Below, one piece after another: positions 12,065 to 39,344 of a stretch of DNA of 64,000 bases (position 1 is its first letter; each line of letters starts with the position of its first letter). The DNA lies in IMG/VR virus record IMGVR_UViG_3300003690_000090, positions 8,989-72,988 of that record, one strand, 5' to 3'. The notes beneath the pieces were generated by a model, which searched no databases, was not told the DNA's origin, and saw only the letters and a list, made by a program, of their open reading frames with translations. This DNA is from a virus. The position numbers were made by a program, and so were the translations under genes.

Positions 12065-12084
12065 TCCCGACGGAGACGGCGCTA

Positions 12085-24574: not shown

Positions 24575-24956
24575 GGTGATATTCTAAGGCCATGGCGGTA
24601 AGATTTTCCACTCTGGCACCTCAACTTTATGACCCTTGGGTGAAGGGTATGGTTAGGGGGAGTGGAGACGGGGGCCTCGCAGCCTGTGGAAATGTACCCC
24701 ACCTGGCAGTGAGTAGGTGCGTGGCCGGCATGAGGCGTAAAATCAGTGATTCCAACCAGTTACGGCGCAATTATGCCCTCGCCGGAGGCCTCAACCACGC
24801 GATTCAGCATGGCCCCGTGGAGATACCCCGTGTTCAAATTTTGCGCACGCACCGACGAGGCCGGAAAAGGAGGTAGCCGCTGACGCCTGGCCCCGCGTGT
24901 CCCCCAATGGTGTGTGCCTGGTCCGGTATCAGCTCGGCCACGCCCCACATGGGATG

Positions 24957-25303
24957 GAGTTCTACCCGGGCCGCGCCATGTACGGAATCCGAATCTCGTT
25001 CGGACTCACCACGAATCTCGTTCGGATTTTGCGGGCGCCGCAAGTGCTACCTGGTGCACCCCCACTGCTACCCGGTCCGAGATCGGGGAGGGGGGAGGGC
25101 TACCTGGCCTGCGCCCTGGGCCTTTGTTGAAGTGCTACCTGGCCCGCTGCGCCAAGTGCTACCCGGCGCGGAATCAAAGGGGCAGCTCCTGTGTGTGCCA
25201 GGCCCGGAAGTCTTTCGACCAGGCGGTGGAGCCGCCAATCTCGTAGAGCTCAACCAGCTGGCGCCACCCACGGGCTTCCGCCCAGGCTCGAGCAGTACCT
25301 GGC
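24957..25303 (+). repeat. GCTACCYGG motif cluster 1 (~7 copies) plus 15-bp direct repeat CGAATCTCGTTCGGA
   Basis: Copies near 24960, 25045, 25067, 25099, 25134, 25158, 25295; direct repeat at 24990 and 25012. Confidence 0.85.
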
Positions 25304-25349
25304 GGGCAGAACGATGCCGCCCATACCAGGTACATGCTTGTCAGGTCCA

Positions 25350-25670
25350 CTACTTGGCCTCCGGCTTGTGGAACTCAGTGAGCGCATCGCCAAGCGCCTG
25401 GCGCAACACTCGCTTGCATGGAGCGGGGACCAACTCATCGTCGTCGTCCCACATCTCGAGGTACGGAGACTCCGGGAAGTCGTCCTCGCTGCCGACGCAG
25501 ATGTCGTCGGTGATGACGGAGACGGCGTACTGTTCTTGGTTGAGTGGAGGGGGGTCACCCTCTACCCACCAATCTAAGCCGCCAATCTGCGCCTCGCACT
25601 TGAGCCCCATGTCGTGGGCGTTGTCGCATGCTGCGTTCAGGCCGTTGAGAATGAATTCGCTGGGGGTCAT
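25350..25670 (-). CDS. Small acidic early-type protein
   Basis: GGAGGTGA-n-ATGA coupled junction; 106 aa. Confidence 0.65.
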   Translation of the reverse strand: MTPSEFILNGLNAACDNAHDMGLKCEAQIGGLDWWVEGDPPPLNQEQYAVSVITDDICVGSEDDFPESPYLEMWDDDDELVPAPCKRVLRQALGDALTEFHKPEAK

Positions 25671-26092
25671 GACTTCACCTCCGGCACAGCCTTGGCCTTG
25701 GCGATCACTGCAAGCCCGCGTTCTCTAAGTTCTGCAACTCGCTTCGCAAAGGCCTCCCGGTCCTTGTATCTTGGACCGCGCCCCATCCAACCCAGTTCCG
25801 TTGTCACTTCCTTGACGAAGGACATCACCCCCGGCCAGCAGTCGTCGTGTTGTCGGTCGCGCTCATCGTCGTAGACTGGCTTCTCGCAGTCGGCGCAGCG
25901 GACCTCTGGGACCTCTGGCATCCGCACCCAGCACAGCACCCATCGCTCGTCGACCTCGAGGCCCAAACTCATCACGGAGATCCCGTCCGGCGGTAGCGGC
26001 AGTCCCTCGTCTGCCCCGGTCATGACGTGAACAACCAGGCCGTCGGTGTTCTCGATGTGCTTCATCTCATGCAACTTGATTGTGTCGCTCAT
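25667..26092 (-). CDS. Small early-type protein
   Basis: 141 aa; ATGA overlaps at both ends. Confidence 0.65.
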   Translation of the reverse strand: MSDTIKLHEMKHIENTDGLVVHVMTGADEGLPLPPDGISVMSLGLEVDERWVLCWVRMPEVPEVRCADCEKPVYDDERDRQHDDCWPGVMSFVKEVTTELGWMGRGPRYKDREAFAKRVAELRERGLAVIAKAKAVPEVKS

Positions 26093-26334
26093 GACGCACC
26101 CCCACCACCGTGCTTGAGGGTTTCCAGTTCGTTCTCAAACCTGTCGTAGAGTCGACAGGCTGTGTCGAGGTGGGTTTGCATGACCTCTTGGACCTCCTTG
26201 TCGATGTCGTCCTCGGGGTCACCGAACATGGTGATGTTGTCCTCCGCTTTCTGGATGTAGTCCTCGAGCATGAAGAGGACGTCTGCGACCTCGTCCGGGA
26301 CAAAGAACACCATGATTTCTTGGTGAGCCATCAT
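26089..26334 (-). CDS. Small acidic early-type protein
   Basis: MMAHQEIMVFF...; GGAGGTG RBS with ATGA overlap. Confidence 0.6.
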   Translation of the reverse strand: MMAHQEIMVFFVPDEVADVLFMLEDYIQKAEDNITMFGDPEDDIDKEVQEVMQTHLDTACRLYDRFENELETLKHGGGGAS

Positions 26335-27062
26335 GCACCTCCCTTCGACAGCCATTCGTTGATTTTCCAGGCACCATCCTCGTCGACGCCGTACTCCTCG
26401 AGGAGGTCTTCGCACAGTTTCTCCTCGAGGTTGAAGACGGCGTTGGCGTGTGCATCGCCAGCATAGTTGTCGACAACCAGAAGGGCGACCTGCACCGGCA
26501 CCGTCATGGTCACGAACGCGCCATCCTCGATGAGGGCTTTCCACTTCGCCTTGGTGGCGTCATCCGGGTGCAGCGGGTTGCTGGTGTCGTCCTCCGGATC
26601 CTCTGCGTCACACTCCTCGGCAAACGCACGGCGCTCGTCCTCAAGTTGCTGGTCGGTGCTGGTGTCGTCCTCCGGAAGAAGCATGTTGATGTGCTCGGGG
26701 TCACAGGGTGGCCTGCCAAGGTAGCCATTGATGGCAGCATCGCACTCATCCTTGGCGGTGGCGTCATCAATCTCGCCCTCGTCCCATCGACCGTGCGCAC
26801 GGTCAATCGACACCCACAGGTCATCGATGGCACCCACGCGCCCCTTGCCGTCGACGAGTGCTTCGATCATCCCAAGCAACCGAGTCGCATCGCCGGGGCG
26901 GGGGCCTGGGTCGTCGCAGTCCGTGGCCGTGAAAAAGTAGTTGTCGTCCAACTCCGTGCGGTGTCGTGCGACCTCCTCTGCAAGGACAACGATGTCCCTG
27001 AGTGCCGGCATGTCGCCCTCTCCGAACTGTCCGTACTGTTGAAGTTTCTTACTGAGTTCCAT
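26331..27062 (-). CDS. Acidic early-type protein, 243 aa
   Basis: AGGAGG RBS after a promoter; very D/E-rich. Confidence 0.65.
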   Translation of the reverse strand: MELSKKLQQYGQFGEGDMPALRDIVVLAEEVARHRTELDDNYFFTATDCDDPGPRPGDATRLLGMIEALVDGKGRVGAIDDLWVSIDRAHGRWDEGEIDDATAKDECDAAINGYLGRPPCDPEHINMLLPEDDTSTDQQLEDERRAFAEECDAEDPEDDTSNPLHPDDATKAKWKALIEDGAFVTMTVPVQVALLVVDNYAGDAHANAVFNLEEKLCEDLLEEYGVDEDGAWKINEWLSKGGA

Positions 27063-27092
27063 GACATCCTCCTGTGTTGTGGTGTCACAGGT

Positions 27093-27121
27093 AACGTAAC
27101 CTACCATGACAACACCCGCAA
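27093..27121 (-). promoter_or_regulatory. Early-type promoter
   Basis: TTGCGG-17-TACGTT; block GTTGTCATGG...GGTTACGTTACCTGTGACACCAC is shared with the 29.5 kb promoter. Confidence 0.6.
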
Positions 27122-27165
27122 AAGAAAGATGGGGTCAGGGGGGACACCACGACCTCCCTGACCCC
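27120..27165 (-). terminator. Intrinsic terminator
   Basis: 10-bp stem GGGGTCAGGG/CCCTGACCCC followed by a U-rich tail on the - strand. Confidence 0.65.
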
Positions 27166-27250
27166 TGGACTCGAGCAGGTCACTACCAACCTGAAGCCCA
27201 ACAGTAATCCTATTGCGTGCCCCAGCCGTGGTCAAGGGTGACACCGCAGC

Positions 27251-27344
27251 TCGTACCTGGCAGAAGCGCTACCTGGCCCGCCCCCGCCTGGGCACGGTCG
27301 AGTGCTACCTGGCCCGCGACCACCAGGCCGAGAGCTACCCGGTC
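27251..27344 (+). repeat. GCTACCYGG motif cluster 2 (4 copies)
   Basis: Copies near 27253, 27268, 27304, 27334. Confidence 0.85.
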
Positions 27345-27540
27345 TGTGAGCTGTGCTTCAGGCCCGCCACCAGCTGGATGGAGCCGGAACTCTAAGCTCG
27401 TGGGCGGACGACCAGGCCAGTGTTGATGGATGAAAGAAGTCCGGCACGAACCCGCCCAACCACCCTCCACTTTGTTTAGGCCTGGACGCCCACAAGAGCC
27501 GGAGACTGGGCAGAACCCAGCCCCCGGGTTTGACCTGGTA

Positions 27541-27900
27541 CTACACACCACTGAAGCCTTTGCGCTTGGCGAGGCCCCATGCCTTGTTGATCAGGTCAAG
27601 GGTCACATCGGGATGGATGGATCCGAGAGGCCGGTCTTCGTCCTCGTCGTCTACCAGTTCAGGTTCGGCACCCGTCAGGTTCTCCCAAGCATTGCATATG
27701 GCTTGGTTCGAGTCGCAGTGATCTCCAGTGGCGCAGTACTTGTCGCCATGCCCTTGTTCCAAGAAGGCGAGGTTCTGCTTGTCAATGAGCAGGAGGGTCT
27801 CGGGTTCATTCGTGAACCACGCCTGCATGACGCTGCGGAACTCTTCCGCCAGCGCCTCTGGTGTCGGGGGAAGAGGGTCAGTAGAGAGTCGGTCGGTCAT
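27541..27900 (-). CDS. Small early-type protein
   Basis: 119 aa; starts in a GGAGGTGACGTCATGA junction. Confidence 0.65.
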   Translation of the reverse strand: MTDRLSTDPLPPTPEALAEEFRSVMQAWFTNEPETLLLIDKQNLAFLEQGHGDKYCATGDHCDSNQAICNAWENLTGAEPELVDDEDEDRPLGSIHPDVTLDLINKAWGLAKRKGFSGV

Positions 27901-28064
27901 GACGTCACCTCCTCTTCATGCCCAGCGCTGCACTTCGGGCACGCCTCCGCGTGGCACTTCTTGCACAGCATCGTGTCGTCGTCGTCGCCAATCCACTCGG
28001 CAGACCAGATGCTCACGACCTCGCCGCATCGGTTGCAGGGATCCCATTCTTCTGGAAACGTCAT
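27897..28064 (-). CDS. Small Cys-rich (Zn-finger) protein
   Basis: CNRC, CKKC, CPKC; ends EVTS. Confidence 0.6.
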   Translation of the reverse strand: MTFPEEWDPCNRCGEVVSIWSAEWIGDDDDTMLCKKCHAEACPKCSAGHEEEVTS

Positions 28065-28297
28065 GACGTCACCTCCGCAACGATGTCTTGTGCTTCCCAC
28101 GCTGCGTCGTCGAACCCTCGTCCGCCAAGCGGGTCGTCTTCGTGGTCCGTGACGAACTCGTCGGAGTCCGAGTGGTCCTGTCCGTTGTTCAGCCAGTCCT
28201 CTGCCTTCGCCTTGGCCTCCTCCGGGGAGGAAGCCAAGACGGTGACGTCTGCGAACTCAATCTTGGTTCTTACCAGTGGAACTGTGTACTCCCTCAT
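28061..28297 (-). CDS. Small acidic protein
   Basis: V.ASSPEEA..KA motif; ends EVTS. Confidence 0.6.
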   Translation of the reverse strand: MREYTVPLVRTKIEFADVTVLASSPEEAKAKAEDWLNNGQDHSDSDEFVTDHEDDPLGGRGFDDAAWEAQDIVAEVTS

Positions 28298-29157
28298 GAC
28301 GTCACCTCCGACCACTCGCCGTTGTCGGTCTCTTCATGCGCGGCGTCCTCGGATTCCCAGCACCAACTCATGCCGCCGACGGACCACACGGGCTCGTCGA
28401 TGCCTTCGATGGTTTGGGGAAACCAGACCTCGGGCTCGTCCAAGGTCTCGCCATTCACGCACGGGACATGCACGTTGCCTTCATGCCAGTCCATCTCGTT
28501 GTCGTAGCCAGCGTTGCACTGGGTCATCACCGCTTCCATCTGCGCCTTGGTGAAGTAGGGCACGCGCCATCCGTTACACGTCTGGCCAAGGCAGTAGCCT
28601 TCGACGGTATAGTCGAAGAACTCCATGTAGAAGTGCTTGATGGTTGCCTTGTACTTCGGGGTGCTTGGCAGCCTGCCCATGTGGATGTCGACTTGCTCTG
28701 GCGTCCACAGTGGTTGGCGCACGCGGATGGTGATGCCAACCTCATGGTCGGCGTTCTCTCCTGCCTCGTTCAACACCTCCACGTCACAGCGCGAGAGGTA
28801 CACATGCAACTCCTCTGGCACAACGCCATTGGTGGTGCGGAACTGTGCCGGCGGGTTGTCGTCGTGCATCCGATTAAGCATTGCGAAGAACTCGCAGAGT
28901 TCGACATGCTCGTCTGCCTCGTCGGGTTGACGATCTGAACCCCAGGGACGAGTCCGGTCAGGGTCAGCGGGGCGAGAGGTGATGCCGTAGTCACCAGACC
29001 GTTGGAGTGCGGCGCTGACGATAGAGGCAAGCACGCCTTCTCGGCTGATGGACCGGCACATTTCTCTGCCGTCACAGTAGCCAGTCCAAATCAGTTCGGG
29101 CGGTCGCTGGTCAGTGCTTCCAGTAGCAAGGTGGTTGGTGAGTTCGTTGATGTCCAT
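28294..29157 (-). CDS. Early-type protein, 287 aa
   Basis: GAGGA RBS; C-terminal NGW.VPYFT motif; ends EVTS. Confidence 0.65.
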   Translation of the reverse strand: MDINELTNHLATGSTDQRPPELIWTGYCDGREMCRSISREGVLASIVSAALQRSGDYGITSRPADPDRTRPWGSDRQPDEADEHVELCEFFAMLNRMHDDNPPAQFRTTNGVVPEELHVYLSRCDVEVLNEAGENADHEVGITIRVRQPLWTPEQVDIHMGRLPSTPKYKATIKHFYMEFFDYTVEGYCLGQTCNGWRVPYFTKAQMEAVMTQCNAGYDNEMDWHEGNVHVPCVNGETLDEPEVWFPQTIEGIDEPVWSVGGMSWCWESEDAAHEETDNGEWSEVTS

Positions 29158-29235
29158 GGTGTCCTCATGTTGTGTGTGGTGTCGGCGGGGGAAGCCCTCC
29201 CCCAAGGGATAAGTATCACGGTAGGCAACGGCGGG

Positions 29236-29475
29236 CTACCTCCACGACCCGGGGCATGCCTGCTTGGCGGCGAGCACGGAGGCATAGGAATGCTCGACGC
29301 AGTTGTCGCGCCACACCTCGGCGACCGGCACGATGCGCCCGCTGGTCAGTACGGTGTACCCGGGTAGGGGACACACGCTTTGGTCGGTCACCTCGTCCCA
29401 CTCGGGGGAGGTCTCGTAGCACATGGCGCCCCCGACGAGGACGGCAACAGCGTAGGGGAATCTATCGGTAGTCAT
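29236..29475 (-). CDS. Small early-type protein, 79 aa
   Basis: GAGGA RBS after a promoter. Confidence 0.55.
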   Translation of the reverse strand: MTTDRFPYAVAVLVGGAMCYETSPEWDEVTDQSVCPLPGYTVLTSGRIVPVAEVWRDNCVEHSYASVLAAKQACPGSWR

Positions 29476-29506
29476 GATTGTCCTCGTTGTGTGTGGTGTC
29501 ACAGGT

Positions 29507-29534
29507 AACGTAACCCGCCATGACAACGGCGCAA
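29507..29534 (-). promoter_or_regulatory. Early-type promoter
   Basis: TTGCGC-cgttgtcatggcgggt(16)-TACGTT. Confidence 0.6.
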
Positions 29535-29544
29535 CACAGCGGGG

Positions 29545-29710
29545 CAGCGCTACCCGGTCCGCCGCCCCCTGGGCAGAGCTACATGGACCGCCGCCCGCAA
29601 GGCAAGCGCTACCCGGCCTGCCACCAGCCGGAGCTCCTGTTGGAGCCGCGCATGAGCTGGGCAAGCGCTACCCGGACCGCTCCCAACTGGGCGAGTACTA
29701 CCCGGACCGC
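29545..29710 (+). repeat. GCTACCYGG motif cluster 3 (5 copies, ~30-bp periodicity)
   Basis: Copies near 29545, 29575, 29604, 29663, 29693. Confidence 0.85.
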
Positions 29711-29789
29711 TGCCCACCGTTGTTACTATCATCCGCCTGGTCAACTCGAACCCGGGCAGTTCCGATCTCGCCGGCCTGGGCTCGAGACG

Positions 29790-29826
29790 CAAAGAAGCCC
29801 AGCCGACCTAGTGGCCGACTGGGCTC
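29790..29826 (-). terminator. Intrinsic terminator
   Basis: AGCCCAG...CTGGGCT stem with a U-rich tail on the - strand. Confidence 0.5.
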
Positions 29827-29856
29827 GGGTGCCGGGCTAAGCCCGGGGACACCACC

Positions 29857-30165
29857 CTATGGCTCTGGCATGTTGTGCTCATCGCCGAAGAAGTAGCCCT
29901 GATCTGGCGCGTTCAGCGAGACCTGGTATTCGGTCGGCTTGCCTGCTTTCTCCCAACACGCGACATGGTAGCAGCACACCTCCATCACGTTGGATACCTC
30001 CGCGCCATCCACGCGCCCATACCCGTCGTACTCGCCTTGGCGGATCGTGCCGTCCTTCTCGATCACGACCACCTGGCGCATCCAATTGTTGATCGGGCTT
30101 GTCGCCCATTCACTCAGCATGGGGTGCTGGCATGCGTTGCAGTTAGCGCTGAAAAATCCCATCAT
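29857..30165 (-). CDS. Small Cys/His protein, 102 aa
   Basis: MMGFFSANCNAC...GEYDGYG...YHVAC...DQGYF. Confidence 0.65.
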   Translation of the reverse strand: MMGFFSANCNACQHPMLSEWATSPINNWMRQVVVIEKDGTIRQGEYDGYGRVDGAEVSNVMEVCCYHVACWEKAGKPTEYQVSLNAPDQGYFFGDEHNMPEP

Positions 30166-30338
30166 GCACCCCCTTCGGTCTTGTGGGGCGTTGTCTTGGG
30201 TGCCTTGTACCAAAACCGTTCTTCCTTGCACCACGACAGCCCGGTGTAGATAATGATCTGCCCCTCGTTGTCCGTGTCTATCGTTGCAAGGGGCAGCAAT
30301 TGTGCGAGTGCTTGTACCAATTGATCCATAGTCATCAT
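30162..30338 (-). CDS. Small protein, 58 aa
   Basis: DNEGQIIIYTGL motif; ATGA overlaps. Confidence 0.55.
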   Translation of the reverse strand: MMTMDQLVQALAQLLPLATIDTDNEGQIIIYTGLSWCKEERFWYKAPKTTPHKTEGGA

Positions 30339-31084
30339 GCACCCCCTTCTGCCTTGCGCCACCCGGTGTACCGGTTGACCTTCGGACCGTGCGCGACGAT
30401 GGCCACCGACGGGCGACGGGCACCCCTCGAGGTACCATCGCACTGCCTGCAGGATGCGCAGTCCAGCACCTTGCCTGCTTCCTCTGCAGCCGGGCACACC
30501 CGTTCCCACGGTTGCAAGGCTTCGGTTGCAAGGCGCGTTCTAAACGTCCGCCATCCCAGCGAATGAGCGATCGTCGCTTCGGCGGGTGTGTCGACCGACG
30601 CCATGACAAGATCCGCCCATTCGGACGCGTCCAGATCTGGCCACCTATGATCGTATCCGGTCCACCCCTTGGCATCCTGCAGCATCGCACGCCATGTGGG
30701 AGAGGGTACGACCGACGGGTTTCCATAGGTACCCATCCGAACCATGCGACCGTCAAGGTGCGCGGGCAATTCCGAGACGTCCGGGCGGATCACGTTGCCC
30801 CGGTGGTACGCTTGCCAGACTGCAAGCGGACCCCGGAAGGCGAGCACGTAGCACGCGCCAGACCCGCCCGATGCGACCGAACGGTGTCCGCAGTCCCCGC
30901 AGACTGCGACGTCATCCCCGGACCGGATAGCGTCATGTGGTGCGATATCCCTGTGCATAAGGTAGGTCTGGACCAGATCGCCCGTCTTGGCATTGGCGGA
31001 CTGGTAGTCAAGGTCCTGCGTGATCCCGATAATCGGTGATCCGTCTATGGGCGATGGCCCCTCATAGAATACGATGCGTCGCAT
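30335..31084 (-). CDS. Cys-rich putative Fe-S protein (gp88/radical-SAM-like phage family), 249 aa
   Basis: N.KTG, CGDC, CYV, R.G.YG.P, GY.H.W, MAS.D, GWRTF, CPA...CASCRQC, ..AHG. Confidence 0.6.
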   Translation of the reverse strand: MRRIVFYEGPSPIDGSPIIGITQDLDYQSANAKTGDLVQTYLMHRDIAPHDAIRSGDDVAVCGDCGHRSVASGGSGACYVLAFRGPLAVWQAYHRGNVIRPDVSELPAHLDGRMVRMGTYGNPSVVPSPTWRAMLQDAKGWTGYDHRWPDLDASEWADLVMASVDTPAEATIAHSLGWRTFRTRLATEALQPWERVCPAAEEAGKVLDCASCRQCDGTSRGARRPSVAIVAHGPKVNRYTGWRKAEGGA

Positions 31085-31132
31085 GTGGTGTGTCCGTTGT
31101 TTGTGGTGTCCGACGGGTAGCCCGTCCCATGT

Positions 31133-31160
31133 AATGTAACCCGCCCTGATAACGGGGCAA
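31133..31160 (-). promoter_or_regulatory. Early-type promoter with CGTTATCAG element
   Basis: TTGCCC-cgttatcagggcgggt(16)-TACATT. Confidence 0.6.
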
Positions 31161-31167
31161 CCCGTCG

Positions 31168-31337
31168 CAAGCGCTACCCGGACCGCCGCCCACATGCCGG
31201 GAGGCCTGGCACAATGCAAGCGCTACCCGGACCGCCGCCCACATGCCGAGGCGCAAGCGCTACCCGGACCGCTATGAGCTGGCACAATGCAAGCGCTACC
31301 CGGCCCGCTGCTGGCAAGCAAGCGCTACCCGGTCCGC
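31168..31337 (+). repeat. GCTACCYGG motif cluster 4 (5 copies of CAAGCGCTACCCGGnCCG)
   Basis: Copies at 31168, 31217, 31254, 31290, 31319, between divergent promoters. Confidence 0.9.
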
Positions 31338-31397
31338 TGCCCGCTGGGCACGACCTTGTGGAGCCGGAGACCTGGTCTCGCATGCGTGTCTCGATGG

Positions 31398-31425
31398 GTG
31401 CCCCGTTATCAGAACAGGTTACATT
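31398..31425 (+). promoter_or_regulatory. Early-type promoter with CGTTATCAG element
   Basis: GTGCCC-cgttatcagaacaggt(16)-TACATT. Confidence 0.55.
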
Positions 31426-31454
31426 ATCCATGGACACAAACCACGGAGGTCCAC

Positions 31455-31778
31455 ATGAAACCCCCCACCTTTGAAACCCACAACGACACCAAGGTCGACA
31501 TCAATGGCACGCACCTGCAGGGGCACATCGACACCACGTTCGGTGCCCTCGTTTGCACGTTCGGAGAACCGACAGTCGGTGACGAATACAAGATCGACTG
31601 GGAATGGGAGATTGAGTTTGCAGATGGCACCGTTGCCACTGTCTACAACTGGAAGAATGGCCCCAACTATTGCAGGTCCGGAGGGAAACGCGCCAACCAG
31701 ATCACCGATTGGCACGTTGGCGGTCACAAGGGTGAAGCGTTGGCGCTGGTGCAGCAGGCGCTGGGAGGTCTGGCATGA
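31455..31778 (+). CDS. Small phage protein, 107 aa
   Basis: GGAGGT RBS; GTHLQG...FGEP...K..WEW...T.YNWK...WHVGG. Confidence 0.7.
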   Translation: MKPPTFETHNDTKVDINGTHLQGHIDTTFGALVCTFGEPTVGDEYKIDWEWEIEFADGTVATVYNWKNGPNYCRSGGKRANQITDWHVGGHKGEALALVQQALGGLA

Positions 31779-31999
31779 TCTATCGAGGTAGCCTCGCAGA
31801 AGGTCCAGCGCGTGAGTCCGACGGGTTCCCCAAGTGGATTGAATGGAAGGGGGTGCAGTACCAGACACCCCACTATGACGTCATCCATGAATGGGTCTAT
31901 GACAGCATTGTGGATGCCATCGACGGCACCCCCATCGAGCCCGATGGGATCACCTGTGAGGGTTGCCCCTCATGGCTGCTGGCATTGGGTCTGATCTAA
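31775..31999 (+). CDS. Small phage protein, 74 aa
   Basis: DG..IEPDG....G.PSWL..LGLI; GGAGG RBS. Confidence 0.65.
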   Translation: MIYRGSLAEGPARESDGFPKWIEWKGVQYQTPHYDVIHEWVYDSIVDAIDGTPIEPDGITCEGCPSWLLALGLI

Positions 32000-32036
32000 A
32001 CACGACACCGGGAGGTAGGGATGGAATAGCGCATCC

Positions 32037-32072
32037 GCCCCGTCATCCGCAAGGGTGGCGGGGTTTCCTATT
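32037..32072 (+). terminator. Probable intrinsic terminator
   Basis: GCCCCGTCATCC-GCAA-GGGTGGCGGGGT stem followed by TTCCTATT. Confidence 0.5.
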
Positions 32073-32087
32073 GGCCTGGTGCAAGCG

Positions 32088-32153
32088 CAAGCGCTACCCG
32101 GACCGCCCCCGCCTGGGCACGGGACCGTGGAGCCGTAAGCGCTACCCGGCCCG
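32088..32153 (+). repeat. GCTACCYGG motif cluster 5 (2 copies)
   Basis: Copies at 32088 and 32137, between convergent terminators. Confidence 0.85.
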
Positions 32154-32220
32154 CCACCGGTTGTGTCTACTATCATCACACCAGCTGGCAGCTCCGACCT
32201 GGTAGAGCTCAAGCCCAGCA

Positions 32221-32259
32221 CAAAGAGAAGCCCCGCCGAGCTTGGAGCCGGGCGGGGCG
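32221..32259 (-). terminator. Intrinsic terminator
   Basis: GCCCCGCC/GGCGGGGC stem with a TTCTCTTTG tail on the - strand. Confidence 0.55.
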
Positions 32260-32478
32260 GTTGGCCTGGTCGAACGTTAGGCCGGTGAGATCAGTCGTCG
32301 GGTGGCCTGGGCAGAATTGCCATGGCGCAGAAGAAGAGAACGACAAGGGCAGTGCATGCCAAGGTGGTCATGAGGAAGTCGAACATGTGGGGCCTGGTCT
32401 TGTGGTGAGTGAGTTGTTTTGATTTGGTTTGGGGGTGCGGGACGGGAGGAACCACCCTCCCGCCCCGGGTTGTACAAC

Positions 32479-33105
32479 CTACCCAAGCATTTCCTCTGCG
32501 CCGATGGACTTGCCGCCCATGACCAGACTGTCAAAGTTGGAACCATCCAGGCGCAGACCGTAGTTCCTCCAGTACCGTTGGCGCAGGTCAAAGGTGTGCT
32601 TGACCCACGGCTTGATGCCGGTGGTGATCTTGGTGCGCACGGTTTCGGCACGCTTGACTTCGGTTCCCTCTGCTGCTGCGCCCTTCCACATTTCCAGACC
32701 GACCACAAGAACCTCGTCCTCATTCTTGGGGTTGCGCATCAGGCGACCGTCAACCACGGTGACCAATTCAGTCTTGCGGTCATGCTCACCGGCAAGGGAC
32801 TTGCTTGCGCTTGCGATCAATTCATCAATCGCAACGGCGATATCAGCAGCAGTGGGAACCATGCGGATAGGGTCCGCGCCCTTCTGGCGAACCAGCGGGT
32901 TGACCATGTCAGGGTGTGCAGCCAGTGCCACGGGGTCAAGGGACCGGAGGGTTTCCAAATCCTTTCGGATGACGTTCTTGTACGACACGCCGATCTGCAA
33001 TTTGCGATGCCGGCTTTCGCCTTCTTTCGTGACATGTCCACGGATGAAGGCGATCTGTCCGCCTCCGGTTTCGGCAATCATGGTTTCGATGGTGGGGGTG
33101 GCCAT
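32479..33105 (-). CDS. Hypothetical protein, 208 aa
   Basis: GGAGG RBS; MATPTIETMIAET... Confidence 0.65.
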   Translation of the reverse strand: MATPTIETMIAETGGGQIAFIRGHVTKEGESRHRKLQIGVSYKNVIRKDLETLRSLDPVALAAHPDMVNPLVRQKGADPIRMVPTAADIAVAIDELIASASKSLAGEHDRKTELVTVVDGRLMRNPKNEDEVLVVGLEMWKGAAAEGTEVKRAETVRTKITTGIKPWVKHTFDLRQRYWRNYGLRLDGSNFDSLVMGGKSIGAEEMLG

Positions 33106-33154
33106 GGTTGGCCTCCATTGGTTTGGGTTGTCACCGGAGGGTTCCGGTACAAAC

Positions 33155-33182
33155 AACCTATCGTCATGGGTGATAACGTCAA
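33155..33182 (-). promoter_or_regulatory. Early-type promoter
   Basis: TTGACG-ttatcacccatgacga(16)-TAGGTT; contains CGTTATCA. Confidence 0.5.
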
Positions 33183-33240
33183 GGGCACAGCCCGACCCCT
33201 GGCCCCCATGCCCCATGCCGGCATGCCCCCACACCCCCGC

Positions 33241-33371
33241 GTTACCTGGCATACACCCACCAAGTGCTACTCGGACCGCCACCAATTGACCAAGAGCTAC
33301 CCGGACCGCCATCAATTGAGACCAACCAAGCGCTACCCGGACCGCCATCAATTGACGGAGTGCTACCTGGC
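33241..33371 (+). repeat. GCTACCYGG motif cluster 6 (5 copies in ~30-36-bp units with CAATTGA)
   Basis: CAAGnGCTACyCGGACCGCCAyCAATTGA repeated three times, plus flanking copies. Confidence 0.9.
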
Positions 33372-33425
33372 GTTCAGCCGTTCCAGCTCATGTGGTGTGG
33401 TGGGAAGCAGCTGGGTTGTGGAGCA

Positions 33426-33453
33426 ATGCACCGTTATCAGAACGGGTTACATT
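33426..33453 (+). promoter_or_regulatory. Early-type promoter with CGTTATCAG element
   Basis: ATGCAC-cgttatcagaacgggt(16)-TACATT, then a GACAACAAACACGAGG leader. Confidence 0.55.
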
Positions 33454-33481
33454 ATGTATAGACAACAAACACGAGGTGAAC

Positions 33482-33730
33482 ATGGGAAAGCAAGTAGTAG
33501 TATTCGAACTTCCTGACTGCGATATCTGCGCTGATGGAACCAAAGCAAAGTACGACGCGAAGACTCGAAGGGGTCCGTGGGGCAACCTGTGCGAGCCGTG
33601 CTGGAAGCGACACACCTATCGCCACCTTGGCACGGGGTTCGGTCAGGAACTGGTTCTGAAGGTCACGGACGGATCAGACCACCTGCGCAATGTCCGGGCT
33701 GTTCTGGACATGTTGGGGGACAAGTCATGA
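33482..33730 (+). CDS. Small Zn-finger protein, 82 aa
   Basis: CDIC...YDAKT..GPW..LC..C...LG.G.GQ; GAGGTG RBS. Confidence 0.7.
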   Translation: MGKQVVVFELPDCDICADGTKAKYDAKTRRGPWGNLCEPCWKRHTYRHLGTGFGQELVLKVTDGSDHLRNVRAVLDMLGDKS

Positions 33731-33918
33731 TCGACTACCACGCCACGGTGAGCAAGTGTGACGTTTGTGGGTTGCACGACTACGACGAGGACATCGTTGT
33801 GGTCACCGACGAGGAGGACGGGGAGGACGTCACCCTGTGCGCCGATTGCGCGAGGGACTGGGATGGTTGCGAGACCGGTAGTGGGGGGGACGAAACCGCC
33901 CACTACCGAGGCTACTAG
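33727..33918 (+). CDS. Small Zn-finger protein, 63 aa
   Basis: CDVC...LCADC; ATGA overlap. Confidence 0.55.
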   Translation: MIDYHATVSKCDVCGLHDYDEDIVVVTDEEDGEDVTLCADCARDWDGCETGSGGDETAHYRGY

Positions 33919-34057
33919 TCAACCGGGCTGGCATCCCAAACTGCCTCCTTCTTCTTCTCTTTGCCTCCACAGGTAGCCTCCACGGTAGCCTCCACGGTTG
34001 GCACTATCATCAAGGTGTGGCTACGTAGTTATCATGACAACCAACACCGAGGGATAC

Positions 34058-35323
34058 ATGGAAGAGGACGTGAGATACACCACGCTTGATCTGTTTGCGG
34101 GTGCAGGGGGAGCATCATTGGGACTACGAGACGCAGGGTTTCATCATGCGTTGTGTGTAGAGTGGGATGAGGATGCAACGGAGACGTTGTTGGCAGCAGA
34201 CTTTCCAGCAGCGAATGCAGACGTCAGGGAGTTGGATGTCTACAAGACAATCGAGAGAGTCGATCTGTTGTGGGCATCGCCACCATGCCAGGCGTTCTCA
34301 ACTGCTGGGCAGAGGAGGGGTGCGGAGGATGACAGGAACGGATGGCCGTGGACTCTTGAGGTGATTGACCACTTGATGGAGCGTGGTGTTGGTCCGAGGT
34401 ACGTCGTCTGTGAGAATGTACAGGGACTGACGTACCACCAGGCGGAGTGTGTTGGGGGGAACAGTGGTTGTGCTGGTTGCTATTGGGAAGGGTGGATCAT
34501 TCCAGAGTTCAAGAAGCGCTTTGCGTGGGTAGGTCATACGACGTTGGATGCTGCAGGCTTTGGAGTACCACAGCATAGGAAGCGTGTGTTCTTGGTGGCG
34601 GGTGATGGACCGATACGGTGGCCAGTACCAACGCATGGACCACCGAATGCAGCGAAGCAGGGTGCATTGTTTGGTGGTGGTGTCAGGCCGTATGTCACGG
34701 TGCGTGATGCATTGAACATTGACGCATGGGCTACGGAGACGAACACGAGCTCGGGTATGGCTCGAGTAGCGAGGAGTGCAGATACTCCATCGTGTTCACC
34801 AGTAGCGGGAGGCAAGGCGCTGGGTGGATTGCTTGAGGTAGACACTAGGGTGATGGGTGTCTCATGCAATCCATTCAAGAAGGATGAGAACGGAGGTCCA
34901 CTCAAGGAAGACAGAACGTACAAGGACATCACGGATACACCAGCTGGGTGTGTGAGTTCTCGTGGTCCATTGGACAATCAAGGTCCATTCGTAGTGAGCG
35001 ATGGTGCTTCAGTACCAGGTCCAGGCAGTGAGCCATGGAGACTGGATGAACCATCAGCAACTGTGACTACTACAGAGGAGAAGGGTACGAGGGGGAAGCA
35101 TATGAGTGGTGGACCAGACAGAGCTGCTGACACTATGTGGCGTGGTGCTGGTGTGAGACGATTGACATGGCAGGAGTGTGCAGCGTTGCAGTCGTTTCCA
35201 GTGGAACATCCATTTCAGGGGAAGACGAAGAAGAGTCTGTATCGCCAGGTAGGGAATGCAGTACCACCACCGTTGTCTCGTGTCTTAGGTCAGGCCGTGA
35301 AGGAGGCATTGGATGCAGGCTGA
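34058..35323 (+). CDS. DNA cytosine-5 methyltransferase
   Basis: DLFAGAGG, SPPCQ.FS, ENV, GVPQ.R.R, RRLT..E...LQSFP, Q.GNAVPP motifs. Confidence 0.95.
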   Translation: MEEDVRYTTLDLFAGAGGASLGLRDAGFHHALCVEWDEDATETLLAADFPAANADVRELDVYKTIERVDLLWASPPCQAFSTAGQRRGAEDDRNGWPWTLEVIDHLMERGVGPRYVVCENVQGLTYHQAECVGGNSGCAGCYWEGWIIPEFKKRFAWVGHTTLDAAGFGVPQHRKRVFLVAGDGPIRWPVPTHGPPNAAKQGALFGGGVRPYVTVRDALNIDAWATETNTSSGMARVARSADTPSCSPVAGGKALGGLLEVDTRVMGVSCNPFKKDENGGPLKEDRTYKDITDTPAGCVSSRGPLDNQGPFVVSDGASVPGPGSEPWRLDEPSATVTTTEEKGTRGKHMSGGPDRAADTMWRGAGVRRLTWQECAALQSFPVEHPFQGKTKKSLYRQVGNAVPPPLSRVLGQAVKEALDAG

Positions 35324-35603
35324 TGTAGTGGATGTAGAGGATGGAGAGTTCTTTCCATTGAGTGAGGCGGAGTTGGGAATAGACATCGTCTGGTTCATCG
35401 ATGGATTGATTGATGCAGTGACGAGCGGGTTGGAGAGCACATCGAAAGGATTGTTAGTGGGTGAGCCATTGTGTGAGGAGGTACCAGCGACAGGGGTTCT
35501 ATCTGTGTACGTACCGGTGTCGTACTGTTGGATGGAACCAATGTGTGTTCGTATAGCGCAGGTAGGTGCTGGGTACTGGCAGTGGGGTGGTGAGGGAGAC
35601 TGA
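35313..35603 (+). CDS. Hypothetical protein, 96 aa
   Basis: AGGAGG RBS; overlaps the MTase end. Confidence 0.5.
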   Translation: MQADVVDVEDGEFFPLSEAELGIDIVWFIDGLIDAVTSGLESTSKGLLVGEPLCEEVPATGVLSVYVPVSYCWMEPMCVRIAQVGAGYWQWGGEGD

Positions 35604-36535
35604 TGCTTGGGTATGAGATTGTATTGAGCCAGTTCTTTCCATCTGACGGAGTGTTGGGTGTAGACGAACGACACATGGACATCTCTGGTGTAGAGCCGGA
35701 GGTGATGGACCGTATTGGTGCGATGGTTGGTGGTGGACCAGTCGAGCTGACGGAGATTGTTCGAGCTCGTGGGAAGGCAGGACATCACTTGCTACCAGGC
35801 GATGTGGTGTGTCGGTATGCTGGTATAGGTGAGCAGCGTTGTGATGTGATTCGGTTGTTACGGGATGTTGTGTATGCGGACGGTGGTGGAGTCTCCAGTG
35901 AGCAGCAGCGAGCGATAGAGGAGCTGCGTCAGCGCTGTGTAGAGGAGCATCGTTGGGGGGTGGTACGTCGTGATGAGTTGATGGTGATCATGGATGCGTT
36001 TGGTAGGGGGGTGGTGTTCAGTAGTTACGGTGCATTTCGGTGGTGGAGAAAGCCGATGGAGATGTTGTCTAGCAGGCAGCGTCATACTGATCCAACGCCG
36101 GAGAGGGTAGCTGCTGCTTGGTGTGCGATACGTGCAGTGCATGGTCATTTGCACGAGGTGTATGGGGGTGGTGGTTCTGTGGGTATGGGTGCTTTCACAA
36201 GGACTGAGCGTATAGCCAGGCTGGTGTACAACTTGCGGATGCGGTTGGGGTGTGTGGCTGGTGATGGGGAGGTAGTGAAGATGCACTACTTCTGGGGTTT
36301 GAAGCATGCTCCGTGGTGGGACCGAGTGTTTGATCGTCATGCTGCTGGGTTGTTTCTACCGAAGCCATTGCTTCACGTATGTGGTCAACGGTCGACGAAG
36401 TGGGTGAAGTCGAGCGTGGTGGACATGGACTTGGTTTATCGATTTGCTGGTTGGCCGGAGTGGGTTGGCCAGGGTCCATTGAAGTTCACGAGGGTAGACA
36501 AAGATGATGTTCGAGGTAGTTGGTACTGGAGATGA
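35603..36535 (+). CDS. Hypothetical protein, 310 aa
   Basis: TGATG-coupled start; long ORF. Confidence 0.6.
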   Translation: MLGYEIVLSQFFPSDGVLGVDERHMDISGVEPEVMDRIGAMVGGGPVELTEIVRARGKAGHHLLPGDVVCRYAGIGEQRCDVIRLLRDVVYADGGGVSSEQQRAIEELRQRCVEEHRWGVVRRDELMVIMDAFGRGVVFSSYGAFRWWRKPMEMLSSRQRHTDPTPERVAAAWCAIRAVHGHLHEVYGGGGSVGMGAFTRTERIARLVYNLRMRLGCVAGDGEVVKMHYFWGLKHAPWWDRVFDRHAAGLFLPKPLLHVCGQRSTKWVKSSVVDMDLVYRFAGWPEWVGQGPLKFTRVDKDDVRGSWYWR

Positions 36536-36857
36536 GGCTGGTATTCATGCATTGAAGCGTGAGCTTCGTCAGTTTGTAGGTGCATGGCACTTGTTTCTGT
36601 CGGGTGAGGTTGTTGAGGAGCATCGGTGGCGGTGTGTACCTGGCTGGGCGAAGAAGGTTCCTGGGATGCTGGACGAGGAATGGATCTTGTTTGATTTGGA
36701 CAAGCATGTTGGTAATCCGTGGCGGATTCGGTTTTTGCGTAGTGTGTTGGACCAGGTGGTTGGTTGGAGTGCGAGTGGAGATCTGATCGAGGGTGTATTG
36801 CCGTCGATTGACACAGCGGTAGAGATGTTCGAGGAGTTGTTTGGTGTTGAAGAATGA
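36504..36857 (+). CDS. Hypothetical protein, 117 aa
   Basis: Fills the operon gap before rusA. Confidence 0.5.
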   Translation: MMFEVVGTGDEAGIHALKRELRQFVGAWHLFLSGEVVEEHRWRCVPGWAKKVPGMLDEEWILFDLDKHVGNPWRIRFLRSVLDQVVGWSASGDLIEGVLPSIDTAVEMFEELFGVEE

Positions 36858-37287
36858 GCTGTTGCTGGCAGCGTTAGTGCCAGGTGATCCGATTGGTAAG
36901 GGCAGGCCGCGTGGCACTGTGCGTGGTGGATATGTGAAGATGTACACGCCGAAGCGGACAGCTGATTGGGAGAGGGCTGCGGCGTTGCTGGTCCGGAATG
37001 CATGGAAGCGTGCGCCGTATGAGGGTCCAGTGCATGTGGAGTTTGATGCTGTATTTCACCGGCCGAAGCGATTGCTTCGCAAGCGAGATCCTGAGCAAAG
37101 GGTCTGGCACACGTCCAAGCCAGACATAGATAATGTTGCGAAGAGTGGATTGGACAGCTTGGTTATGGCTGGAATGATCCGAGATGATGTGCAGTGTGTC
37201 TCATTGCAATGTCGGTCAATGTATTCATCGAAAGTAGAGGGTCCTTGTTTGGAGGTGCGTGTGTATTCAGTTGACGAGCTTCCTTGA
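36841..37287 (+). CDS. rusA: RusA-family Holliday junction resolvase
   Basis: P.GKGRPR, YTP..T, KPDIDN..K..LD.L, DD.Q motifs. Confidence 0.88.
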   Translation: MVLKNELLLAALVPGDPIGKGRPRGTVRGGYVKMYTPKRTADWERAAALLVRNAWKRAPYEGPVHVEFDAVFHRPKRLLRKRDPEQRVWHTSKPDIDNVAKSGLDSLVMAGMIRDDVQCVSLQCRSMYSSKVEGPCLEVRVYSVDELP

Positions 37288-37310
37288 CAGGGCTACGTTT
37301 CGATCGAGGT

Positions 37311-37381
37311 CACTTTCATTTGTGATCCTCGTGTTTGTGTTGTCGGGAGCCCCCACAGTCCAGTGGGGGTTCCTTTTTTTT
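37311..37381 (+). ncRNA. Candidate anti-RBS small RNA 1 (may derive from the rusA 3' UTR)
   Basis: CAT...TCCTCGTGTTTGTGTTGTC is complementary to early leaders; ends in an 11-bp stem + T8. Confidence 0.45.
37346..37381 (+). terminator. Intrinsic terminator
   Basis: GGAGCCCCCAC-agtcca-GTGGGGGTTCC + T8. Confidence 0.85.
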
Positions 37382-37411
37382 GCGCAAACGGTTGCTTGCG
37401 TTATTCTTGTT

Positions 37412-37504
37412 ATGTCAAGCTACCAGCCTGTCCTCGGTTAGCGGACCACACGCCGCTTGCCTCCCTAAAGCCCCCAGGTGCTCAACAGCGGCCTGGGGGC
37501 TTTT
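37412..37504 (+). ncRNA. Candidate small RNA 2 (~90 nt) with its own promoter and terminator
   Basis: TTGCGC-16-TATTCT upstream; TGTCCTCG and GCCTCCCT anti-SD tracts; 12-bp terminator stem. Confidence 0.4.
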
Positions 37505-37510
37505 CATTCT
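37467..37510 (+). terminator. Intrinsic terminator
   Basis: AAAGCCCCCAGG...CCTGGGGGCTTT followed by a T-rich tail. Confidence 0.75.
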
Positions 37511-37550
37511 TGGGTAACGGGGTATTATTGGACATCGATCCGGAGGGGAC

Positions 37551-39344
37551 GTGGCCTCGAGTAAAGAATCATATGACGCCCTTCTTAGGCAGATCAATAG
37601 TGGGGGCAACATCTCTCGACTTGGGGGAACGTCGGAATGGTCCCGAGGTGGCCCTGGGGCCAGGAGTAACTGGGAGATGCTTTCTGACGGCTTCGACGAC
37701 ATGCTTCGAGAAGTGCAAGCCGATGTGAATAGCGGCAGGATGAGTAAAGAGGCTGCGGAGGAATATGTAGAGGCTCGTGTGGTCGCCACAAAGAGGATCT
37801 TTATTGAAAGGACAGACACAAAGTTTGAGGGAAGTATTCGTGGTGGGCCGGGAGGGCTACGGTGGATGGATGCCCCCGAAACAGAGGCCGGGCGCATGAT
37901 GGAGGCGAGCGCGGCGCAGGCGGAAAGAAAAGTTCCTGGCTCGCGGCAGACCTTGGCAAATGTACGGGTTCCAAAACGGGGACTGGGTGGCTTCTCATTG
38001 GAGGACCTTCTGAAAATAGGCAAGAAAGGGGCCAAAGCAGTGCCTTTGTTTGGTCTTGCAGCGGAGTTCGCTGACATCCCCGAGGCGCAAGCCAGCACGA
38101 TGGGTTCGAGGTACGAGAGTGCCCCCAAGGCAAGAGAAAGGCAGGAGCGGGACATTGAATCTGAACAGTTCCTGGCCGATGAGCCCCCGTCTGGCATGAC
38201 CCGGTTCGCTGGGCCGGGAGGGGGGAAACGATACGCCGCCGAGCGATTTGGAACGAGCCAGGTTGACGTGATCCGAGAAGCGGAGCGCAGTTACCTGCAG
38301 GGCATTGCGAATGCTACGGGTGGCGAATCGCGGTTTACGATTGAGGAGATGCAGCAGGCGTTGGCCGAGGGACCGCCGCAGGAGACTGTAGAGCGCAAAG
38401 AGCTGGAGGAATCGGGATTTCTCGAGCCGACGCAGCGGATGCGTGGATTCTTTGAAGAGATTGGGATGACTGGCGAGCATGGTCCGGTGGAGGAACCGGA
38501 TGCGCCTCCGGAGGTTGAGGCTCGCATAGCGATTGGATCGAGTGCGATTATTGGTGGTCCGGGTGCGGGGACGATGACGCAGAAGAACTTTGTGGACTTG
38601 GTGAATCGCCAGACGAAGCAACCGATTGGTCGGTTCCGTGTTGGTGACTACGTGCCTGGTCTGGGCAACATCGACGACATTGGCGAGCGTGTTTCGCGCC
38701 GACCTGGCCGTCCGGAGATTGACGTACCTGCGATTCGGATTGTCCCGGACGACAAGTCAGTGAAGCCGTACTGGATCATGGGTCACGACTTGGTGCCACC
38801 TGGTACGGAAGATGTCTTGGCGCAGTGGATGGAGCCAGAGGGAAGATGGGGGCGGGGGAGGGACGCTGAACGAGCATTCGGGAACCTTATGCTTCAGCAG
38901 GAAGAGGTGCACGAAGCGGACATGTCGTTTGATCCAACCGCCTACTTCCCATTCGGGGAGAAACCGCCTGGACTAAGGCTCGATCCTTCACTAAGCGACT
39001 ATGAACATATGGAATCCGGCGACCAAGTCCCCTGGGAGTCCGACCTGTATGATTACAGTCAAGTCCCCTCCTGGCAGTCCGACCTGGACCAGGGATTGTT
39101 GGCCGACGACCAGCAAGTTGCAGACGATGAGCTCTTGCAGGACCTGATGGGTCTCGAGGCCGGCAGCTCGGAAGAGGCTGCGATGCGGTCTATGCGCCGC
39201 GAGAATGGTGGTGTTGCGGCGGAAGAGGTTTACGGCGTGAGCTTTGATGGCGAGGACTTTGTGGCTGTGGACACAGCTGGCAGGGGAACGTACTACTACA
39301 ACTCAGATACTGGCGAAAGTTTTTGGGGTGACACGGAGGGTTGA
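37551..39344 (+). CDS. Large acidic hypothetical protein, 597 aa
   Basis: GGAGGGG RBS with GTG start; long ORF. Confidence 0.7.
   Translation: MASSKESYDALLRQINSGGNISRLGGTSEWSRGGPGARSNWEMLSDGFDDMLREVQADVNSGRMSKEAAEEYVEARVVATKRIFIERTDTKFEGSIRGGPGGLRWMDAPETEAGRMMEASAAQAERKVPGSRQTLANVRVPKRGLGGFSLEDLLKIGKKGAKAVPLFGLAAEFADIPEAQASTMGSRYESAPKARERQERDIESEQFLADEPPSGMTRFAGPGGGKRYAAERFGTSQVDVIREAERSYLQGIANATGGESRFTIEEMQQALAEGPPQETVERKELEESGFLEPTQRMRGFFEEIGMTGEHGPVEEPDAPPEVEARIAIGSSAIIGGPGAGTMTQKNFVDLVNRQTKQPIGRFRVGDYVPGLGNIDDIGERVSRRPGRPEIDVPAIRIVPDDKSVKPYWIMGHDLVPPGTEDVLAQWMEPEGRWGRGRDAERAFGNLMLQQEEVHEADMSFDPTAYFPFGEKPPGLRLDPSLSDYEHMESGDQVPWESDLYDYSQVPSWQSDLDQGLLADDQQVADDELLQDLMGLEAGSSEEAAMRSMRRENGGVAAEEVYGVSFDGEDFVAVDTAGRGTYYYNSDTGESFWGDTEG

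Follow-up and report, generated by a model that had tools for sequence, protein, structure and literature searches.

Polar arrays of a 20-nt repeat in the early region of a phage lineage without cultured relatives: possible sites for a regulator of early promoter cassettes

The early region of the virus represented by IMG/VR record IMGVR_UViG_3300003690_000090 carries six non-coding clusters of a repeated unit about 20 nucleotides (nt) in length, and these arrays are the subject of the present analysis. The window analysed is a stretch of 64,000 nt, bases 8989-72988 of the 72,988-bp virus record (labelled G000 in the genome comparisons), and positions are those of the window. The units are asymmetric, are arranged in tandem and head-to-tail, lie on the + strand in all six clusters and together span 24957-33374; the clusters lie among repeated promoter-like boxes, and homologous arrays are present in two related genomes. 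We read the arrays as iteron-like double-stranded DNA sites for an asymmetric, sequence-specific regulator of early promoter cassettes, a reading that is held tentatively, with a confidence somewhat short of even.

An earlier first-pass annotation of the window had described about 28 co-oriented sites in this region, and the polar motif at the centre of that description is real. The core GCTACCYGG has 21 matches in the window, all on the + strand between 25046 and 33370, against a mean of 0.69 and a largest value of 4 in dinucleotide shuffles, of which 0 of 100 reached 21. Across the complete 72,988-bp record there are likewise 21 forward and 0 reverse matches, and all of them fall within 8.4 kb of the 73 kb, the other 64 kb being without the motif, which bears out the statement that there are six clusters and none elsewhere. 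When as many as 3 mismatches are allowed, the 17-mer AAGYGCTACCYGGNCCG has 28 matches in the window against 1.6 expected; 25 are on the + strand and span 24957-33344, while the other three are on the - strand, carry 2-3 mismatches and lie outside the region. The match at 26481 is inside a coding sequence, lacks the core and appears chance-like. With the exact nine-letter match at 33362 included, the number of units comes to 25 (21 exact and 4 variants), so that the exact sites stand as first described whereas the total of about 28 was slightly high. Alignment of the 25 units gives caAGnGCTACCcGGnCCGC..cC, with about 29/33 bits in 23 columns. Neighbouring units less than 100 bp apart are spaced by 21-85 bp with a median of 30, in agreement with the spacing of about 30 bp first proposed. 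The arrays, which adjoin two kinds of repeated box (a predicted promoter cassette and a box with the core CTATCATC), are as follows.

24957-25170, + strand: array 1, six units, one of them degenerate (24957), with an internal 85-bp gap that holds two small palindromes
27264-27346, + strand: array 2, consisting of three units and separated by about 150 bp from the predicted leftward promoter copy (27084-27121), upstream of which it lies
29545-29709, + strand: array 3, five units, which start about 10 bp beyond the upstream end of the predicted leftward promoter copy 29498-29535 and end at a CTATCATC box
31169-31336, + strand: array 4, five units, between divergent predicted promoter copies at 31124-31161 (-) and 31396-31426 (+)
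32089-32153, + strand: array 5, two units, between predicted terminators at 32037-32064 (+) and 32228-32243 (-), followed by a CTATCATC box
33262-33374, + strand: array 6, four units; the leftward gene 32479-33105 starts on one side of it, and the predicted rightward promoter copy (33427-33454) lies on the other
24961, 29578, 29697 and 33266, + strand: the four variant units, which deviate from exact GCTACCYGG

The non-coding nature of the clusters is upheld on closer inspection. Open reading frames (ORFs) that overlap the arrays, such as 32479-33351, are upstream extensions of genes whose true starts lie outside the arrays, and the unit spacings in arrays 3 and 4 break the reading frame. Single-strand folding of the arrays, on either strand, gave z-scores of -0.4 to +1.7, not better than shuffles, and the arrays matched no Rfam family and gave no hit in a tRNA scan; since the folding scores are ordinary and Rfam gives no match, no role as RNA or single-stranded DNA is evident. 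Within the gap of array 1, CGAATCTCGTTCGGA occurs twice in tandem at 24988-25004 and 25012-25026, each copy forming a small perfect palindrome (TCCGAA..TTCGGA), possibly the operator of a dimeric protein. A sigma-54-like TGGCAC-N5-AAGC, seen ahead of two units, was dropped as a candidate, other units being without it.

The phage has many relatives at the level of its terminase: TerL identifies 53 related IMG/VR loci at 48-77% identity, many of them on contigs of about 70 kb, while the closest TerL in the cultured phage collection shows 27% identity. In each of 15 long relatives that were checked GCTACCYGG occurs at most 3 times, and in IMG/VR the exact motif was found at 45 loci, every one of them single, with no arrays. 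An unbiased k-mer count showed that two relatives, G001 and G011, have arrays of their own, with GGCGCGATCTGGT in four clusters in G011 and CCAAGTCGCACC in six clusters on the opposite strand in G001. Aligned in the orientation of TerL, the units read aaGCGCTACCCGGaCCGCc-CCCac in G000, ggtGCGACTTGGaCCGtCCCCtAAC in G001 and ggcGCGATCTGGTtCGcaCCCaaAC in G011. Their common pattern, GCKAYYYGGNNYG, has 22 forward and 3 reverse matches in G000, 0 and 18 in G001 and 14 and 0 in G011, against at most 2 matches in each of the other 48 records out of 50. Thus 2 of 50 related viral records contain a homologous word whose letters are particular to the lineage, and such changes of letter fit, on sequence grounds, the pattern of a site that co-evolves with its binder.

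These genomes also bear on the polarity. TerL lies on the - strand in G001 and on the + strand in G011, and the orientation of the arrays with respect to TerL is the same in G000, G001 and G011, so that the check for conservation in relatives gave equally polar homologous arrays. Because the arrays are in synteny in G001 and G011, their orientation is inherited by descent. In both of these genomes all recognised homologues near the arrays are on one strand, with the motif on their template strand; in G000 the dominant leftward genes likewise have the motif on their template strand, and the motif is not flipped at two rightward cassettes. Among the array-bearing genomes only the window has rightward genes amid the arrays, and these would be driven by inverted promoter copies (inverted repeats I1 and I2). 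The polarity had been described in the first-pass annotation as independent of transcription, a description that is not supported for the leftward early genes of the three genomes and therefore rests on the two small inverted rightward cassettes only; the step from fixed polarity to the conclusion that the sites are not operators is weak.

Evidence that the word itself is conserved comes from metagenomes, where a search with the pattern gave mostly single matches together with three contigs that are true relatives carrying the word of the window. These align to 23.9-32.5 kb at 70-94% identity. In array 3 of the most distant contig (about 75% identical) 68 of 80 core positions are kept against 42 of 71 in the spacers, all 36 gapped columns fall in spacers, and the core is kept in all 16 visible units but one (GCTACTCGG). 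Copy number differs, with five units in array 4 of the window and four in two of the metagenome relatives, and with three units in array 2 of the window, 4 in Ga0098047 and 5 in Ga0208179. Since cores are kept while spacers drift, the word is under selection of its own, with spacing and copy number free to vary. The first proposal of a DNA-level, sequence-specific and polar element is supported. Sequences related to 24800-34100 were seen in seawater, marine and vent metagenomes of several studies (runs X2, X3, X5 and X7). The public runs that contain the region are stored as contigs and not as raw reads, and none of those listed is an RNA run.

The surroundings of the arrays are themselves repetitive. 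A repeat search identified a box of 31-47 nt in five copies that are 79-89% alike, three leftward and two rightward, and this box is predicted from its letters to be a sigma-70-like early promoter, TTGCsC-N16-TACrTT, with a leader ending in a ribosome-binding site and start codon. All five copies have GTTATCAG or GTTGTCAT within the spacer, and the promoters of G001 have the reverse complement CTGATAAC in theirs. A second box, CCAC..GTTG..CTATCATC, is present three times in the window, always on the + strand, with its CTATCATC cores at 29726, 32170 and 34004. Two of the boxes in the window are antisense, pointing into leftward early genes.

27084-27121, - strand: predicted promoter cassette copy, TTGCGG-N16-TACGTT with a conserved leader (hexamers by our own reading); repeat families D7 and D11
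29498-29535, - strand: predicted promoter cassette copy ahead of gene 29236-29475 (79 aa)
31124-31161, - strand: predicted promoter cassette copy, upstream of gene 30335-31084; invariant in two relatives
31396-31426, + strand: inverted predicted promoter cassette copy ahead of gene 31455-31778 (107 aa); inverted repeat I1, direct family D12
33427-33454, + strand: inverted predicted promoter cassette copy ahead of 33482-33730 and 33727-33918, both small genes of zinc-ribbon-like type; I2, D12
29713-29733, + strand: CCACCGTTG..CTATCATC box directly after array 3; repeat family D17; kept in two relatives
32152-32177, + strand: second CTATCATC box, directly after array 5; repeat family D17
33972-34011, + strand: third CTATCATC box, preceded by two copies of GGTAGCCTCCAC, just upstream of the C5 methyltransferase gene and rightward operon
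32037-32064 (+), 29799-29818 (-) and 32228-32243 (-): terminators predicted from sequence

The placing of the arrays relative to these boxes is regular in several respects. The first unit lies 8-10 bp from the edge of the promoter box at 29.5 and 31.1 kb (arrays 3 and 4), and the last unit lies about 50 bp upstream of the rightward promoter copies at 31.4 and 33.4 kb (arrays 4 and 6). In arrays 3 and 5 the distance from the start of the last core to the TATCAT of the CTATCATC box is 30 nt in both cases, and leftward predicted terminators precede both arrays. Each array is thus predicted to fill a gap that the putative promoters and terminators would leave untranscribed.

Boxes of the CTATCATC type extend beyond the array-bearing genomes. 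The box upstream of the rightward operon is also found in G002 (1562) and G003 (61583), and it is with these copies that the third box of the window is syntenic; a box is present in G009 (68550) as well. Repeats of CCCCCGTGG precede the box in G003 and repeats of GGTTAGGGC flank it in G009. A further relative, G010 (L135), has at 6150-6509 6-7 copies of the 22-nt AATGCACGGAAACTTTCAATCA in one 400-bp non-coding stretch heading an early/replication operon, which may be an origin or control region. Lineage-specific direct repeats beside conserved promoter-like boxes therefore recur in this phage group, a pattern that would be expected of regulator sites.

Genes were called from ORF length, codon score and third-position G+C content, together with homology. 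A leftward block at about 9.4-31.1 kb contains genes for RecT/RecE-like proteins, a VapE-like helicase, a primase, a methyltransferase and a helicase, followed by orphans. The leftward orphan gene 32479-33105 comes after this block, and the rightward genes from about 34 kb encode a C5 methyltransferase, RusA, TerS/TerL and structural proteins. Two small rightward cassettes, 31455-31999 and 33482-33918, lie within the array region. GC skew changes from about -0.04 to +0.34 immediately beyond the array region (34000-38000), at the switch in gene direction. A small rightward island within the leftward block holds a gene (12563-12874, +) for a histone-H1-like protein of 103 aa with a basic C-terminal tail of AKKRAP x3, and a possible Cro-like ORF (12046-12327) adjoins it. 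Three long ORFs, 37551-39344 (597 aa), 40461-43544 (1027 aa) and 17-2836 (939 aa), gave no Pfam or PHROG match; those of 597 and 1027 aa also gave no match to PDB sequences, and no DNA polymerase was recognised among the ORFs scanned.

In family searches the record gave no recombinase of the tyrosine or serine type and no integrase or resolvase, and searches for ParB_N, CbiA and AAA_31 (ParA-type) were negative with positive controls. As neither a recombinase nor ParB_N or a ParA-type ATPase was found, readings in terms of immunity and partition are removed. A search of the record for sigma-70 region 2 gave no match and the D.D[GA]D motif was absent from every ORF of at least 200 aa; the search for the T7-type RNA polymerase family gave no match either, although its control was also without a match and the result is hence uninformative. 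The virus appears to be lytic and to rely on the polymerase of its host.

With the repeated boxes taken as promoters, we infer that a protein binds the units and that its binding has an effect on them. An array of 2-6 units would occupy either the stretch upstream of the -35 element of an early promoter or the interval that separates a terminator from the promoter or CTATCATC box that follows. The regulator would load side by side in a single orientation and, once bound, could switch the flanking promoters jointly, for instance turning leftward early transcription off and/or helping rightward promoters of the CTATCATC type. Bound arrays might also insulate adjacent cassettes from read-through, and the idea of a protein-coated array put forward in the first-pass annotation is compatible with such a scheme. 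The common polarity would follow because the arrays hold one orientation with respect to the leftward early units into which they were built and grow by local duplication. The binder would be either phage-encoded or a host factor, and for the former there is one lead among two proteins, P0001 and P0123, that are common to the three array-bearing genomes and are not found in eight other complete or near-complete relatives.

32479-33105, - strand: P0123, an orphan protein of 208 aa with arrays 5 and 6 on either side of its gene
30335-31084, - strand: P0001, a cysteine-rich protein of 249 aa, the first gene behind the predicted promoter copy at 31124-31161

P0123 is the only lead for the binder, and it is a candidate by virtue of co-occurrence alone. 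Six close homologues were found by a word-indexed search and 165 representative clusters by a profile search, and the family gave no match in Pfam (43 members scanned) or PHROGs (28 members). The predicted model is a confident one, with a pLDDT of 82; in the ESM Atlas the best score, 0.82, was within chance, and one remote member of the family gave no match when compared with cultured phages. P0001 was set aside as a binder, being a member of a widespread family with invariant cysteine clusters and looking more like an enzyme or metal-binding protein. It has seven invariant cysteines and a weak match to DUF7227 (best E 1.5e-5, under the Pfam cut-off, in two homologues), and its family counts 1200 proteins (E<=0.001) and extends to 151 records of cultured phages, among them phages of Mycobacterium, Klebsiella, Gordonia and Microcystis. 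P0001 used alone as a query of IMG/VR gave no match. Homologues of P0001 lie near the right end of Cluster A mycobacteriophages, an example being Che12 gp97.

Several observations weigh against the arrays being sites for such a regulator. Neither Pfam nor PHROG recognised a DNA-binding domain in the early ORFs of the three genomes with arrays. P0123 accompanies the arrays in 3 of 3 genomes, in which the whole region is shared by descent, and the P0123 model matched no known fold: the Foldseek search was empty at E<=0.001, and VIA gave a best Z of 6.0, which is within noise. The promoters and terminators are predictions from sequence only, and a canonical promoter copy is missing next to arrays 1 and 5. 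By our count the first unit lies 29, 34 and 36 nt from the -10 element of the leftward promoters, and because this distance varies a strict activator geometry is disfavoured. The finding itself is weakened in two ways. The proper unit for counting orientation is the cluster and not the site, and six clusters would be alike by chance with a probability of about 0.03 by our own arithmetic. The inverted GGTAGC half-sites that had been seen at the edges of the region belong to the background, GGTAGC occurring 23 times on the + strand of the window; near the edge only the tandem pair of GGTAGCCTCCAC (33972/33984) is a real repeat.

A more far-reaching version of the regulator reading, which we consider rather unlikely, is that the P0123 family and the arrays make up an undescribed phage control system, in which a head-to-tail polymer on polar arrays in every untranscribed early gap would act as directional insulators or switches, silencing the mobile promoter cassettes together and firing the antisense rightward CTATCATC promoters.

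Two described systems in which a phage repressor binds DNA invite comparison. The operators and stoperators of Cluster A mycobacteriophages are numerous copies of an asymmetric site distributed across intergenic gaps and promoters, with an orientation tied to transcription and with co-evolution of site and binder (PMC9283540). Stoperators are single 13-mers that flip with gene direction, and they serve the immunity repressor of a temperate phage (PMC9283540). The arrays of the window are in tandem and are unflipped at two rightward cassettes. A repressor of the stoperator type has a helix-turn-helix and a second DNA-binding domain; here no integrase was found, nor any repressor-like helix-turn-helix in the early ORFs. 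A repressor of an unrecognised family is possible in this phage. The MerR-like repressor Gp36 of mycobacteriophage D29 is a small protein that binds GC-rich direct repeats, oligomerises and represses downstream genes, and it is described as having one binding region (PMC12266134), in contrast to the six arrays seen here. No MerR- or Xis-like protein was detected in the early ORFs of the window.

It is also conceivable, if unlikely, that the arrays are iterons in the strict sense, that is, sites of a replication origin or of copy control bound by an initiator, with one cluster serving as origin and the others titrating the initiator or pairing, as in plasmids or P1-type elements. Iterons of plasmids and plasmid-like prophages (P1 incC/incA, RK2, F) are asymmetric direct repeats of about 17-22 bp in several lineage-specific clusters and may overlap promoters for autoregulation. 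The arrays resemble them in consisting of tandem, asymmetric units of about 20 nt in one orientation, 25 in number at a median spacing of 30 bp, in several clusters. The orphan gene 32479-33105 has arrays on both sides, an arrangement resembled by that of an initiator gene between sets of iterons; gene direction and GC skew change sign at the region, and G010 has, where its early/replication operon begins, a single 400-bp cluster of another 22-nt repeat. However, no AT-rich unwinding stretch lies by any array, the 40-mers of lowest GC content between 24 and 34.5 kb being the promoter boxes at 35-40% GC. No Rep-type initiator or winged-helix protein was recognised in family searches of the early ORFs, and the P0123 model is without a clear structural match; moreover the VapE-like helicase, primase and helicase are conserved in relatives that lack arrays. 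Six clusters over 8.4 kb, each bound to a promoter gap, are not the layout of an origin, and no lysogeny or partition genes were found.

A host transcription or nucleoid factor might instead bind the arrays and boost or time early transcription, with a word that differs with the host. The need for early promoters to fire ahead of any phage protein would be in keeping with this, as would a region without a recognised phage DNA-binding protein and the G+C contents of the three genomes (0.56, 0.47 and 0.51), which suggest different hosts. Against it, a scan of bacterial and archaeal genomes that covered 185,579 species representatives gave no arrayed copies and no clue to the host among the matches listed, which comprised at least 120 single pair-matches in unrelated taxa, by our estimate at about chance level. 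We regard a host factor as quite unlikely.

Recombination offers another, improbable, explanation, in which the repeats would be mainly substrates for exchange and units of terminator, array and promoter would shuffle orphan genes, the orientation being a trace of their spread. The region is rich in orphans and the phage encodes RecT- and RecE-like proteins. Metagenome contigs from 2 runs contain a joint between array 6 and array 5 (33310 to 32115); one promoter copy is also found joined to another (33454 to 31431), and 31454-31773 is missing from one contig. The joints come from contigs at 85% likeness and may stem from other relatives or from repeats. The PeSL cassettes (promoter + stem-loop) of T4-type phages do likewise: a strong sigma-70-like early promoter and a terminator flank non-essential orphan genes and recombine (PMC2839356). 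The five promoter copies, three predicted terminators, orphan genes and contig joints between repeats of the present phage are similar. The PeSLs as described there are without an array of a conserved 20-nt word (PMC2839356), and the word here is under selection of its own. Homology alone leaves unexplained both the kept cores with their drifting spacers and the homologous word with changed letters in distant relatives. A role in shuffling can coexist with the binding of a regulator.

A bolder variant would make the arrays multi-copy strand-specific nick sites, like the sites of localized single-strand interruption described for T5, phage tf and phiKMV-like phages. The published consensus sequences are R/GCGCRGG in T5 and CGACxxxxxCCTA/CTCCGG in phiKMV-like phages, and the sites, found also in phage tf, lie on one strand and vary between relatives (PMC3517423). 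The units of the window are likewise strictly confined to one strand (21 forward, 0 reverse) with word variants for each lineage, and by our own comparison the published words share GCGC and CTAC..CCGG with the unit (PMC3517423); an HNH endonuclease gene is present at 39859-40197. Set against this partial likeness of letters, the known sites are single and dispersed (14 in tf and 4-5 major ones elsewhere) and not in tandem 30 nt apart in intergenic gaps (PMC3517423), and nicks at 30-nt intervals on one strand would shed short oligonucleotides. Nicking is very improbable.

The remaining proposals, a packaging (pac/TerS) or DNA-entry signal, a Chi- or KOPS-like translocase signal, a partition site or a methylation-linked role, are most improbable: polarity is constant relative to the TerL gene in three genomes, the C5 methyltransferase gene adjoins the region and the core includes CCNGG, but TerS (43749) and the arrays, which are upstream of it, are 11-19 kb apart and relatives with homologous TerS (50-58% identical) and TerL (72-77%) lack arrays, Chi and KOPS words are short and skewed along a whole replicon whereas this unit is of about 20 nt and is limited to 8.4 kb of 73 kb, no ParB_N, CbiA/AAA_31 ParA, integrase or resolvase is found in the record, and G011 has no match to the methyltransferase of the window while its arrays are mostly without CCNGG, the main unit GCGATCTGG containing none. 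A recognition site for TerS would be expected in or beside the gene of the small terminase and in every genome with a homologous TerS. The first-pass annotation had favoured signals of this kind, and its packaging, translocase and methylation proposals are not supported.

We return to the arrays as possible landmarks of early control in phages of about 70 kb from marine and vent habitats, which have no cultured relative and whose early genes are mostly orphans. In such a phage the arrays are a concrete handle on the organisation of early transcription, and they come with a defined 20-nt word and a few candidate binders, as well as with variation provided by nature, namely three versions of the word and varying copy numbers. 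The element is well defined and belongs to an unexplored phage lineage, and its function is most likely a familiar one; if the units are ordinary operator sites they would still be useful for annotation of the lineage. Should a new DNA-binding family stand behind the arrays, it would add a type of regulator and would provide a further example of a cassette-style early region outside the T4 group.

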